DNA of 13,511 nucleotides from Escherichia coli (GTDB lineage Bacteria > Pseudomonadota > Gammaproteobacteria > Enterobacterales > Enterobacteriaceae), in the NCBI RefSeq assembly GCF_003334315.1, contig NZ_QOWR01000081.1. One strand, 5' to 3'. Shown one piece after another: positions 4,297-11,760 of this stretch. The notes beneath the pieces were generated by a model. The model saw only the letters and a program-made list of their open reading frames with translations, made no database searches and was not told the origin of the DNA. Numbering within the stretch: the first letter of the stretch is position 1; every line of letters begins with the position of its first letter. Position numbers and translations under genes: made by a program.

Positions 4297-4338
4297 AAAA
4301 AAAGCACATTGTTTAATGAATACAATGTGCTTTTTATT
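4297..4338 (+). terminator. Rho-independent terminator of selAB (A-run upstream, T-run downstream, potentially bidirectional)
   Basis: AAAAAAA-GCACATTG-(loop TTTAATGAATA)-CAATGTGC-TTTTTATT; perfect 8-bp stem at 4304-4311 / 4323-4330 followed by T-run 4331-4338. Confidence 0.6.
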
Positions 4339-4432: not shown

Positions 4433-5584
4433 ATGGCATCTTCAACTTTCTTTATTCCTTCTGTGAATGTCATCGGCGCTGATTCATTGACTGATGCAAT
4501 GAATATGATGGCAGATTATGGATTTACCCGTACCTTAATTGTCACTGACAGTATGTTAACGAAATTAGGTATGGCGGGCGATGTGCAAAAAGCACTGGAA
4601 GAACGCAATATTTTTAGCGTTATTTATGATGGCACCCAACCTAACCCCACCACGGAAAACGTCGCCGCAGGTTTGAAATTACTTAAAGAGAATAATTGCG
4701 ATAGCGTGATCTCCTTAGGCGGTGGTTCTCCACACGACTGCGCAAAAGGTATTGCGCTGGTGGCAGCCAATGGCGGCGATATTCGCGATTACGAAGGCGT
4801 TGACCGCTCTGCAAAACCGCAGCTGCCGATGATCGCCATCAATACCACGGCGGGTACGGCCTCTGAAATGACCCGTTTCTGCATCATCACTGACGAAGCG
4901 CGTCATATCAAAATGGCGATTGTTGATAAACATGTCACTCCGCTGCTTTCTGTCAATGACTCCTCTCTGATGATTGGTATGCCGAAGTCACTGACCGCCG
5001 CAACGGGTATGGATGCCTTAACGCACGCTATCGAAGCATATGTTTCTATTGCCGCCACGCCGATCACTGACGCTTGTGCACTGAAAGCCGTGACCATGAT
5101 TGCCGAAAACCTGCCGTTAGCCGTTGAAGATGGCAGTAATGCGAAAGCGCGTGAAGCAATGGCTTATGCCCAGTTCCTTGCCGGTATGGCGTTCAATAAT
5201 GCTTCTCTGGGTTATGTTCATGCGATGGCGCACCAGCTGGGCGGTTTCTACAACCTGCCACACGGTGTATGTAACGCCGTTCTGCTGCCGCATGTTCAGG
5301 TATTCAACAGCAAAGTCGCCGCTGCACGTCTGCGTGACTGTGCCGCTGCAATGGGCGTGAACGTGACAGGTAAAAACGACGCGGAAGGTGCTGAAGCCTG
5401 CATTAACGCCATCCGTGAACTGGCGAAGAAAGTGGATATCCCGGCAGGCCTACGCGACCTGAACGTGAAAGAAGAAGATTTCGCGGTTCTGGCGACTAAT
5501 GCCCTGAAAGATGCCTGTGGCTTTACTAACCCGATCCAGGCAACTCACGAAGAAATTGTGGCGATTTATCGCGCAGCGATGTAA
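4433..5584 (+). CDS. yiaY: Iron-containing (group III) alcohol dehydrogenase
   Basis: 383-aa ORF, AGGAG 7 nt upstream of ATG; translation has Fe-ADH signatures ([14 protein letters not shown]-binding glycine motif, histidine-rich metal site ...[16 protein letters not shown]...). Position between selB and aldB as in K-12. Confidence 0.9.
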
Positions 5585-5599
5585 TCATCATTTCCACAA

Positions 5600-5627
5600 C
5601 GGCTGGCAAATTGTCAGCCGCTTTTTC
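5600..5627 (+). terminator. Rho-independent terminator after yiaY
   Basis: CGGCTGGCAAATTGTCAGCCG hairpin (5600-5620) immediately followed by CTTTTTC. Confidence 0.55.
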
Positions 5628-5684
5628 AACTATCTCTGTAACCCTTGCCCGTAAATTCGTGATAGCTGTCGTAAAGCTGTTACC

Positions 5685-5707
5685 GACTGGCGAAGATTTC
5701 GCCAGTC
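5685..5707 (+). promoter_or_regulatory. Perfect 10-bp inverted repeat with 3-bp spacer (GACTGGCGAA-GAT-TTCGCCAGTC) in the aldB leader; candidate operator or 5'-UTR hairpin
   Basis: Read directly: 5685-5694 is the exact reverse complement of 5698-5707; lies 42 bp upstream of the aldB ATG; no T-run follows, so not a terminator. Confidence 0.3.
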
Positions 5708-5748
5708 ACGTCTACCCTTGTTATACCTCACACCGCAAGGAGACGATC

Positions 5749-7287
5749 ATGACCAATAATCCCCCTTCAGCACAGATTAAGCCCGGCGAGTATGGTTTCC
5801 CCCTCAAGTTAAAAGCCCGCTATGACAACTTTATTGGCGGCGAATGGGTAGCCCCTGCCGACGGCGAGTATTACCAGAATCTGACGCCGGTGACCGGGCA
5901 GCTGCTGTGCGAAGTGGCGTCTTCGGGCAAACGAGACATCGATCTGGCGCTGGATGCTGCGCACAAAGTGAAAGATAAATGGGCGCACACCTCGGTGCAG
6001 GATCGCGCGGCGATTCTGTTTAAGATTGCCGATCGAATGGAACAAAACCTTGAGCTGTTAGCGACGGCTGAAACCTGGGATAACGGCAAACCCATTCGCG
6101 AAACCAGTGCTGCCGACGTGCCGCTGGCGATTGACCATTTTCGCTATTTCGCCTCGTGTATTCGGGCGCAGGAAGGTGGGATCAGTGAAGTTGATAGCGA
6201 AACCGTGGCCTATCATTTCCATGAACCGTTAGGCGTGGTGGGGCAGATTATCCCGTGGAACTTCCCGCTGCTGATGGCGAGCTGGAAAATGGCTCCCGCG
6301 CTGGCGGCGGGCAACTGTGTGGTGCTGAAACCCGCACGTCTTACCCCGCTTTCTGTACTGCTGCTAATGGAAATTGTCGGTGATTTACTGCCGCCGGGCG
6401 TGGTGAACGTGGTCAATGGCGCAGGTGGGGTAATTGGCGAATATCTGGCGACCTCGAAACGCATCGCCAAAGTGGCGTTTACCGGCTCAACGGAAGTGGG
6501 CCAACAAATTATGCAATACGCAACGCAAAACATTATTCCGGTGACGCTGGAGTTGGGCGGTAAGTCGCCAAATATCTTCTTTGCTGATGTGATGGATGAA
6601 GAAGATGCCTTTTTCGATAAAGCGCTGGAAGGCTTTGCACTGTTTGCCTTTAACCAGGGCGAAGTTTGCACCTGTCCGAGTCGTGCTTTAGTGCAGGAAT
6701 CTATCTACGAACGCTTTATGGAACGCGCCATCCGCCGTGTCGAAAGCATTCGTAGCGGTAACCCGCTCGACAGCGTGACGCAAATGGGCGCGCAGGTTTC
6801 TCACGGGCAACTGGAAACCATCCTCAACTACATTGATATCGGTAAAAAAGAGGGCGCTGACGTGCTCACAGGCGGGCGGCGCAAGCTGCTGGAAGGTGAA
6901 CTGAAAGACGGCTACTACCTCGAACCGACGATTCTGTTTGGTCAGAACAATATGCGGGTGTTCCAGGAGGAGATTTTTGGCCCGGTGCTGGCGGTGACCA
7001 CCTTCAAAACGATGGAAGAAGCGCTGGAGCTGGCGAACGATACGCAATATGGCCTGGGCGCGGGCGTCTGGAGCCGCAACGGTAATCTGGCCTATAAGAT
7101 GGGGCGCGGCATACAGGCTGGGCGCGTGTGGACCAACTGTTATCACGCTTACCCGGCACATGCGGCGTTTGGTGGCTACAAACAATCAGGTATCGGTCGC
7201 GAAACCCACAAGATGATGCTGGAGCATTACCAGCAAACCAAGTGCCTGCTGGTGAGCTACTCGGATAAACCGTTGGGGCTGTTCTGA
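5749..7287 (+). CDS. aldB: Aldehyde dehydrogenase B (NAD(P)-dependent)
   Basis: 512-aa reading from ATG 5749 preceded by AAGGAGA (5736-5742); translation [17 protein letters not shown]... with ALDH catalytic signatures (ELGGKSP glutamate motif, catalytic Cys in GEVCTCPSR). The track ORF start at 5611 is an unsupported upstream extension that overlaps the yiaY terminator. Confidence 0.92.
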
Positions 7288-8160: not shown

Positions 8161-9306
8161 ATGGATTTACTGATTATTTTGACCTATGTGGCTTTTGCAT
8201 GGGCAATGTTTAAGATCTTCAAAATTCCCGTAAATAAATGGACCATTCCCACAGCGGCCCTGGGTGGAATATTTATTGTCAGCGGTCTAATTCTGTTAAT
8301 GAACTATAACCATCCGTATACCTTTAAAGCGCAAAAAGCGGTTATTTCTATTCCTGTTGTCCCACAGGTGACTGGTGTGGTGATTGAAGTGACGGATAAG
8401 AAAAATACGCTGATTAAAAAAGGTGAGGTGCTATTTCGACTGGACCCGACGCGTTATCAGGCGCGGGTGGATCGGCTGATGGCGGATATCGTTACCGCAG
8501 AACATAAACAGCGGGCGTTGGGCGCAGAGTTAGATGAGATGGCGGCGAATACTCAGCAGGCAAAGGCCACGCGGGATAAATTCGCTAAAGAGTATCAGCG
8601 TTACGCACGTGGCAGCCAGGCGAAAGTAAACCCGTTTTCAGAACGCGATATCGATGTGGCGCGGCAAAATTATCTGGCGCAGGAAGCCTCCGTGAAGTCA
8701 TCGGCGGCGGAACAAAAACAGATCCAGAGCCAGCTGGATAGCCTGGTGTTGGGTGAACATTCTCAAATCGCCAGCCTGAAAGCACAGCTCGCGGAAGCAA
8801 AATATAACCTTGAGCAGACGATAGTGCGTGCGCCGAGCGATGGTTATGTGACCCAGGTACTGATTCGTCCGGGTACCTATGCCGCGTCGCTGCCGCTACG
8901 TCCGGTGATGGTGTTTATACCCGATCAGAAACGACAAATCGTGGCGCAGTTCCGTCAGAACTCCTTGCTGCGACTGGCTCCTGGCGACGATGCGGAAGTG
9001 GTGTTTAATGCTCTGCCAGGTAAGGTATTCAGCGGTAAGCTGGCAGCCATTAGTCCAGCCGTTCCCGGCGGAGCTTATCAGTCGACCGGCACCTTACAGA
9101 CGTTAAACACAGCGCCGGGTTCAGATGGCGTTATCGCGACCATTGAACTGGATGAGCACACTGATTTGAGCGCTTTACCAGACGGTATTTACGCCCAGGT
9201 GGCGGTTTACTCTGATCATTTCAGCCATGTCTCGGTGATGCGCAAAGTGCTATTACGCATGACCAGCTGGGTGCATTACCCACACCTGCGGCAACCGTGG
9301 CGATAG
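8161..9306 (+). CDS. yiaV: HlyD-family membrane fusion protein YiaV; last about 9 codons are junction-derived, not native
   Basis: 381-aa ORF starting 5 nt after the yiaW stop; N-terminal TM helix, biotinyl/lipoyl-like beta-barrel and long coiled-coil segments typical of membrane fusion proteins; from about 9280 the same nucleotides encode the WcaK N-terminal motif in another frame. Confidence 0.85.
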
Positions 9307-10537: not shown

Positions 10538-11760
10538 AGGTTGGTTTCTTCTTGCTGAAATTCCCGCTGTCGTCTGAAACCTTTGTGCTCAACCAGATTG
10601 TGGCCTTTATCGAAATGGGCCACGAGGTCGAAATTATCGCCCTGCAAAAGGGCGATATGACCAACACCCACGCGGCGTTCACGCAATATGACCTGGCAGC
10701 GAAAACACGCTGGTTACAGGATGAACCAGTGAGTACGGGCGCAAAGTTTCGTCATCGCGCAGTCAGCACGTTGCGCGGGTTACATCGCCCGGCAACGTGG
10801 CAGGCGCTCAATATGAAGCGTTACGGCCATGAAGCGCGCAACCTGATCCTCTCGGCCATTTGCGGCAATAACGCCCAGCCATTTAGCGCCGACGTATTTA
10901 TTGCTCACTTCGGCCCGGCGGGGGTAACTGCGGCGAAACTGCGCGAACTGGGCGTGATCCGCGGCAAAATCGCGACCGTCTTTCACGGCATTGATATCTC
11001 CAGCCGCGATGTGCTGAGCCACTACACGCCGGAGTATCAACAGCTTTTCCGTCGTGGCGATCTGATGCTGCCGATCAGTAATTTGTGGGCGAAACGATTG
11101 CAGGGAATGGGCTGCCCGGCGGCGAAAATTGCCGTTTCGCGAATGGGCGTCAACATGGACCGTTTTGCCCTGCGCCCCACCAAAGCGCCGGGTGAGACGC
11201 TGCAAATAATCTCAGTGGCCCGCCTGACGGAGAAAAAAGGTCTGCATGTAGCGATTGAAGCCTGCCGTCAGTTGAAAGAGCGCGGTGTGGCGTTTCACTA
11301 TCGCATTCTCGGCATCGGCCCGTGGGAACGCCGCCTGCGCACATTGATCGAACAGTATCAACTGGAAGGGTACGTGGAGATGCCGGGCTTTAAGCCCAGC
11401 CATGAGGTAAAAGCGATGCTCGATGAGGCGGATGTCTTTCTGCTGCCGTCGATTACCGGCGCAGATGGCGATATGGAAGGCATTCCTGTGGCACTGATGG
11501 AAGCGATGGCAGTGGGCATTCCGGTGCTTTCGACCGAGCATAGCGGTATTCCGGAACTGATAGACGCCAACGCCTCCGGCTGGCTGGTGGCGGAGAACGA
11601 CGCTCCGGCGCTGGCGGGCAAACTCAGCGAACTGCGCCATCTTGATGAGCCGACGCTGCGCCCGGTGCTACAACGCGCCCGCCAAAAAGTTGAAACCGAG
11701 TTCAATCAGCAGGTGATTAACCGCCAGCTCGCGAGCCTGCTGCAAACCCTTTGCTATTGA
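10534..11760 (+). CDS. wcaL: Colanic acid biosynthesis glycosyltransferase WcaL (GT4 family)
   Basis: 408-aa ORF; N-terminus MKVGFFLLKFPLSSETFVLNQ... and C-terminal GT-B motif region (EGIPVALMEAMAVGIPVLSTEHSGIPELI) with the E-X7-E signature typical of GT4 enzymes. Confidence 0.88.
   Translation: MKVGFFLLKFPLSSETFVLNQIVAFIEMGHEVEIIALQKGDMTNTHAAFTQYDLAAKTRWLQDEPVSTGAKFRHRAVSTLRGLHRPATWQALNMKRYGHEARNLILSAICGNNAQPFSADVFIAHFGPAGVTAAKLRELGVIRGKIATVFHGIDISSRDVLSHYTPEYQQLFRRGDLMLPISNLWAKRLQGMGCPAAKIAVSRMGVNMDRFALRPTKAPGETLQIISVARLTEKKGLHVAIEACRQLKERGVAFHYRILGIGPWERRLRTLIEQYQLEGYVEMPGFKPSHEVKAMLDEADVFLLPSITGADGDMEGIPVALMEAMAVGIPVLSTEHSGIPELIDANASGWLVAENDAPALAGKLSELRHLDEPTLRPVLQRARQKVETEFNQQVINRQLASLLQTLCY

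Follow-up and report, generated by a model that had tools for sequence, protein, structure and literature searches.

An operator-type palindrome in the -35 region and spacer of the Escherichia coli aldB promoter

Introduction

A perfect palindrome precedes the aldB gene of Escherichia coli, which raises the question of what reads it, if anything does. We analysed a window of 13,511 nucleotides, the whole stretch of DNA presented above, which represents the yibF-selA-selB-yiaY-aldB region of E. coli. A preliminary description of the palindrome proposed that it is either the operator of a dimeric regulator or a stable hairpin in the 5'-UTR, and added that aldB is regulated by RpoS. The last point agrees with the title of the study by Xu and Johnson 1995, according to which Fis represses and Crp activates aldB, and RpoS is needed for its expression (PMID 7768815, PMC177007).

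Sequence, position and rarity of the palindrome

The palindrome GACTGGCGAA-GAT-TTCGCCAGTC occupies positions 5685-5707 of the window, which correspond to 3756553-3756575 of MG1655. Its arms, 5685-5694 and 5698-5707, are 100% complementary and are separated by a 3-nt spacer. The element lies past the yiaY terminator and ends 42 bp upstream of the aldB ATG (5749-5751), as the preliminary description had it. The accompanying statement that such palindromes are rare by chance was too strong. A perfect inverted repeat with 10-nt arms and 0-10 nt between them turned up at least once in 50 (17%) of 300 dinucleotide-preserving shuffles, and the unshuffled window has another at 4303-4331. The half-site GACTGGCGAA does not recur exactly anywhere else in the 13.5 kb window. 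As a sequence the palindrome is therefore not statistically striking, and it is its conservation, described below, that sets it apart from chance. The second repeat, with 10-nt arms and a 9-nt spacer, is located between selB and yiaY and is probably the selAB terminator.

Architecture of the aldB promoter

The palindrome is part of an ordered series of elements between the end of yiaY and the start of aldB.

5600-5628, plus strand: intrinsic terminator of yiaY, a stem-loop (5600-5620) followed by a T-run (CTTTTTC) after the yiaY stop codon, located by a terminator scan and an inverted-repeat search
5655-5676, no strand assigned: CRP-like site cGTGA-N6-TCGTA, centre 5665.5, about -59.5 from the putative transcription start
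5688-5704, no strand assigned: conserved core of the palindrome, TGGCGA-AGATT-TCGCCA, centre 5696, about -29
5711-5719, plus strand: sigma-S-type extended -10 element TCTACCCTT, with the hexamer TACCCT at 5713-5718
A5725 (±2 nt), plus strand: putative transcription start, 7 nt past the -10 hexamer
5737-5743, plus strand: Shine-Dalgarno sequence AAGGAGA, with GGAGA invariant in 12 orthologues and the two preceding A's kept in at least 90%
5749-7287, plus strand: aldB coding sequence of 512 amino acids, from the list of open reading frames and the RefSeq annotation of identical DNA

The aligned aldB upstream regions of 12 Enterobacteriaceae share four conserved blocks: the CRP-like cGTGA-N6-TCGTAAA, the palindrome, the block CTACCCTTG, and the Shine-Dalgarno sequence. 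The CRP-like site was matched by eye to the consensus TGTGA-N6-TCACA, and its GTGA and TCG.AAA are invariant in the 12 genera or species aligned. The block CTACCCTTG has the form of a sigma-S -10 element: position -13 is C, -12/-11 are TA, and -7 is T. The -10 hexamer of aldB is given as TACCCT, with no -35 element listed, in a review table that cites Xu and Johnson 1995 (PMC5650638). Because TACCCT is located at 5713-5718, transcription would start near 5725, and the palindrome would extend from about -40 to -18 with its centre at -29. The palindrome is core-promoter DNA between the CRP-like site and the -10 element, not mRNA leader, and the preliminary description was mistaken in assigning it to the aldB leader, since the published -10 hexamer places the transcription start downstream of it. 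The yiaY terminator is the upstream boundary of this promoter module.

Two further sequence features overlap the module. A direct repeat, CTGTCGTAAAG-CTGTTAC at 5666-5683, overlaps the right half of the CRP-like site and resembles a Pho box, agreeing with the consensus at about 15 of 18 positions. The likeness is probably due to chance, as the second repeat is not kept in other genera. The -10 region CGTCTACCCTTG (5709-5721) is complementary to the Shine-Dalgarno region CAAGGAGACG (5735-5745). Such pairing would mask the ribosome-binding site in transcripts that enter from upstream; mRNA from the aldB promoter would not form it.

Conservation across Enterobacteriaceae

The core is conserved across genera of Enterobacteriaceae, and TGGCGA-N5-TCGCCA occupies the same place of the promoter in Escherichia, Citrobacter, Enterobacter, Kluyvera, Leclercia, and Pluralibacter. 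Metagenome contigs were scanned, with E. coli excluded, using a pattern anchored on the -10 element and the Shine-Dalgarno/ATG and independent of the palindrome. The 60 loci obtained, together with the genome loci, provided 44 distinct sequences of a 44-nt stretch spanning the palindrome and the -10 element. The share of the majority base in these 44 sequences is 0.97 in the left core TGGCGA, 0.88 in the right core TCRCCA, 0.97 in the nine columns of the -10 block (5712-5720), and 0.68 in the centre of the palindrome. The adjoining columns reach 0.57-0.71.

The five central base pairs occur as 13 different sequences, at least four of the five are A/T in all 44 orthologues, and the distance from the palindrome to the -10 element is invariant. 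Conserved half-sites around a drifting A/T centre are the signature of a dimer that would contact two half-sites but not the narrow minor groove between them. Between the CRP-like site and the palindrome the spacing varies by 0, +1 or +2 bp, and the phasing of CRP seems less constrained than that of the palindrome. The spacing is 1-2 bp longer in loci L086, L091, L101, L115, L124, L132, L140-L142, L008, and L009.

The module is preceded by different genes (yiaY, selB, one for a ROK-family kinase, or, in some E. coli, a Fic-family gene), and the promoter module therefore travels with aldB. Where the Fic-family gene is inserted between yiaY and aldB (positions 211-1506 of locus L145), homology to the window resumes at about 5631-5636, just past the yiaY terminator. 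Sequences of the Pseudescherichia vulneris type retain the CRP-like site and the -10 element and lack the palindrome, which is thus dispensable for the basic promoter, as befits a regulatory add-on. In L005 and L105, which are of this type, a T-tract stands in its place, and the replacement in L005, TTATCCAC, resembles a DnaA box. The aldB genes of Serratia, Rahnella, Brenneria, and Acerihabitans have neither an alignable promoter nor the palindrome. Natural variants within E. coli alter outer positions of the arms, and one lineage has T in place of C at +7 (C5703). The symmetry often reaches ±9 to ±13 in the orthologues. The palindrome is an operator-type element in the -35 region and spacer of the sigma-S- and CRP-dependent aldB promoter.

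The palindrome as a candidate Fis site

Among the readings that we considered, a binding site for Fis, a published repressor of aldB, fits the palindrome best, and on the sequence comparisons we give it an even chance of being correct. The only critical base contact of Fis is to G-7/C+7, made by Arg85 (Hancock et al. 2016, PMC4784862). An A/T-rich stretch from -2 to +2 permits compression of the minor groove, a purine at -3, a pyrimidine at +3, and T at -8 are favourable, and binding is disfavoured by A at -4, T at +4, and purines at -8, above all G, or the complementary bases at +8 (PMC4784862). About 80% of half-sites in well-characterised regulatory Fis sites have a Y-R step at ±(3-4), which is frequent without being obligatory (PMC4784862).

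The E. coli site T-GGCGAAGATTTCGCC-A, centred at 5696, has all of the favourable determinants save one central G. The critical pair is present as G5689 and C5703, and the corresponding columns 13 and 27 of the alignment read G-C in 42 of the 44 orthologues, with C in column 27 in all of them. Four of the five central bases (AGATT) are A/T, the single G·C being a mild negative determinant. The unfavourable bases are absent, as the site has T-8, G-4, A-3, T+3, C+4, and A+8; at ±4 and ±8 they are absent from 43 of the 44 orthologues when only G-8/C+8 is counted at ±8. We applied these determinants as a heuristic rule rather than a calibrated model, and by this measure 39 of the 44 orthologues pass fully at the same centre, and the four critical positions are complete in 40. 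The five partial cases comprise one sequence with all four critical bases but an inhibitory C+8, and four sequences with three of the four. L017, in which the palindrome has decayed, still passes fully; with a shift of 1 bp, three of the four critical bases are also present in L005 and L105. The strict form of the rule has 1.33 matches per kb in the window.

The palindrome shares with Fis sites that overlap repressed promoters a 15-bp core with G-7/C+7, T/A at ±8, and a purine at -3 opposite a pyrimidine at +3. As in Fis repressor sites, its A/T centre drifts in sequence and it is positioned over the -35 region and spacer of a Fis-repressed promoter. It departs from the norm in having no Y-R step at ±(3-4), where the steps are G-A and T-C and a CpG is displaced one position outward to ±(5-4), and in being a perfect 10+10 palindrome in E. 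coli. Fis sites are typically degenerate, and good ones usually have A/T-rich flanks, whereas the arms of the aldB palindrome are rich in G+C and almost invariant, and its flanks are also G+C-rich. The near-invariance of GGCG/CGCC at ±4 to ±7, together with the symmetry extending to ±9 to ±13, is more than Fis alone explains. The E. coli lineage with T at +7 also speaks against Fis. The excess conservation could come from overlapping polymerase contacts, from template-switch mutation at quasi-palindromes, or from a second specific protein.

Cells contain much Fis in early exponential growth and hardly any in stationary phase. A Fis dimer on the palindrome, at about -40 to -18, would occupy the place of RNA polymerase at the -35 region and spacer and would thereby repress by occlusion. 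Fis occupancy combined with the action of sigma-S and cAMP-CRP would then confine aldB expression to the transition to stationary phase. We infer both the binding of Fis at this particular site and the occlusion from the arrangement of the promoter. The abstract of the 1995 study reportedly describes footprints in the aldB promoter region, five of Fis and one of Crp. Five footprints in an upstream region of roughly 140 bp could hardly miss the palindrome.

The sequence TGGCGATTTATCGCGCA at 5559-5575, in the 3' end of yiaY, also passes the strict Fis rule and resembles the half-sites of the palindrome (TGGCGA...TCGC). It is coding (..AIYRAA..), and its conservation may be driven by the protein.

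Alternative explanations

The palindrome might instead be the operator of a dedicated, yet-unnamed dimeric transcription factor that binds over the -35 region and represses transcription or repositions RNA polymerase, which we regard as unlikely, though worth consideration. Such a factor could be the one behind the reported induction of aldB by ethanol or aldehydes, binding TGGCGA-N5-TCGCCA. In a wider form of the proposal, TGGCGA-W5-TCGCCA would be recognized by an unlinked regulator common to Enterobacteriaceae, for example an ethanol or aldehyde sensor, acting atop Fis, CRP, and sigma-S; this we hold to be rather unlikely. Both half-sites are conserved nearly fully (0.97 and 0.88), beyond the needs of Fis recognition, the dyad is perfect over 10+10 positions in E. 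coli, and its symmetry extends outward in several lineages, as in CCGGCTGGCGA...TCGCCAGCCGG. A 17-bp dyad with two 6-bp half-sites, an uncontacted 5-bp centre, and fixed phasing to the -10 element is also what operators of helix-turn-helix repressors over the -35 region and spacer look like. Unlike those operators, the aldB palindrome has no cognate regulator gene nearby, no other copies in the loci compared, and no match to a known motif. No regulator gene travels with aldB, the neighbours being yiaY, selB, the ROK-family kinase gene, and the Fic-family gene, and a second copy of TGGCGA-N5-TCGCCA was not found in 1.1 Mb of sequence from these loci. We know of no E. coli factor with this motif. 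The right half-site tolerates a G-to-A change (TCACCA) in 17 of the 44 sequences, and the lineages that lack the palindrome retain an A/T-tract site compatible with Fis. The accessible literature names no regulator of aldB besides Fis, Crp, and RpoS, apart from a mention of CyuR in a motif scan, which leaves room for a further factor; the full-text literature searched held nothing relevant on the sequence of the palindrome or on the aldB promoter. A palindrome without any function of its own, arisen by chance or maintained by template switching in DNA whose conservation has another cause, such as polymerase contacts at -35, is improbable. It would accord with the 17% of shuffled windows that contain an equally good repeat, with the polymorphism of the outer arm positions within E. 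coli, and with the overlap of the left arm with the position of a -35-like element (GCGA at -35 to -32). It does not account for half-sites that different genera keep in constant phase with the -10 element next to columns at only 0.57-0.71, nor for the right half-site, which lies in the spacer and has no obvious reason to be conserved for polymerase contact; moreover, no -35 element is given for the aldB promoter in the review table (PMC5650638).

An RNA hairpin, formed either in an aldB leader transcribed from an upstream start or as a 3'-end insulator or stabiliser of read-through from the upstream gene, is quite improbable. The region 5675-5770 folds stably (-27.9 kcal/mol, z = -4.7), and 80% of the cells of the 11-bp stem are paired across the 44 sequences. 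Pair 10/30 covaries, being G-C in 26 sequences and A-U in 8, and cells changed on both sides number 18 against 10.7 in shuffles, a value reached in 2 of 500. Symmetric changes can also come from template-switch mutation at quasi-palindromes. The covariation score is reached by 46 of the 500 shuffles, and neither it nor the number of covarying pairs exceeds the controls. In Citrobacter-type and some Enterobacter-type loci the upstream gene runs right up to the CRP site and no other hairpin intervenes, so that a 3'-end role would be conceivable there; E. coli already has the yiaY terminator upstream. Of the two functions put forward in the preliminary description, the dimeric operator gains from the sequence conservation of both half-sites, the A/T-rich centre, and the fixed -10 distance, and the 5'-UTR hairpin loses: it precedes the start that the published -10 element implies (PMC5650638), pair 15/25 is an uncompensated C·A mismatch in mid-stem in 17 of the 44 sequences, and its outer pairs are broken without compensation in E. 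coli variants. No U-tract follows the stem on either strand (ACGTCTACCC on the plus strand, GGTAACAGC on the minus strand). Adams et al. 2021 list no 3' end at the palindrome in the portion of their Term-seq data that we consulted, which is weak evidence, and a comparison with Rfam returned only chance-level matches (E > 3). Scarcely credible is a sigma-54 promoter (GG-N10-GC) for aldB, left over from, or analogous to, the AcoR/sigma-54 control under which homologous genes for aldehyde dehydrogenases stand. AcoR is a sigma-54 activator that regulates an aldB gene in Phytobacter (PMC12648084). The sequence CTGGCGAAGATTTCGCC has the GG-N10-GC spacing of glnAp2-like -24/-12 promoters and agrees with the glnA site TTGGCACAGATTTCGCT at 13 of 17 positions; its left half is common to the rcdA-region site TTGGCGAAGAAATTGCA. 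Bonocora et al. 2015 give 135 ChIP-seq motifs, and scored with a PSSM made from these the palindrome reaches 9.6 bits, within the bottom 6% of real sites, and five places in the 13.5 kb window score higher. Neither aldB, yiaY nor nearby coordinates are among the 135 sites, and no acoR-like gene adjoins aldB in the loci examined. Unlike in sigma-54 promoters, the GC at -12 is not conserved, reading AC in many orthologues, and palindromic symmetry is irrelevant to sigma-54.

Rejected candidates

Several known types of element were compared with the palindrome and set aside. An intrinsic terminator was rejected for want of a U-tract, and the terminator scan made no call at the palindrome. A sigma-54 promoter was rejected on the background-level PSSM score and the lack of a ChIP-seq peak. 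The CyuR motif GAAwAAATTGTxGxxATTTsyCC, the source of the listing of aldB in a preprint motif scan, does not fit the palindrome when compared by eye. The AcoR site of the Phytobacter aldB gene is unrelated, and acoR does not adjoin aldB in the loci checked. A second CRP site, a LexA box, an IclR-type box, and a Pho box misfit in spacing or bases, as judged by eye against consensus sequences. With MerR-type operators the palindrome shares its location between the -35 and -10 regions and the poor -35 element. About 17 bp separate its centre from the first base of the -10 hexamer, as against about 11-12 bp in the merT, zntA, and copA promoters. A MerR-type spacer operator was rejected on this geometry and on the lack of a TTGACA-like -35 element at the left edge of the palindrome.

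Significance

The finding matters little beyond the annotation of one promoter. If the palindrome is a Fis site, it would offer a base-resolution view of how Fis shuts a promoter dependent on sigma-S and CRP while cells grow fast. The site would then probably be among the Fis footprints of 1995 and hence already known. The comparative data add the modest point that the palindrome is a conserved, phase-locked part of the aldB promoter module, whatever lies upstream. Should a dedicated regulator read it, a small new question would arise, namely how aldB senses ethanol or aldehydes.

Other features of the window

The window is chimeric at 9279/9280. Sequence of the yiaV type extends to about 9279, and wcaK (from about residue 36), wcaL, and wcaM follow from 9280. 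These three are colanic-acid genes, which are located elsewhere in E. coli. The junction is covered in none of 5426 complete E. coli genomes; it stems from misassembly or artificial joining, if not from a rare rearrangement. Within the coding region of wcaL, an inverted repeat with perfect 9-nt arms and a 5-nt spacer is located at 10635-10657.
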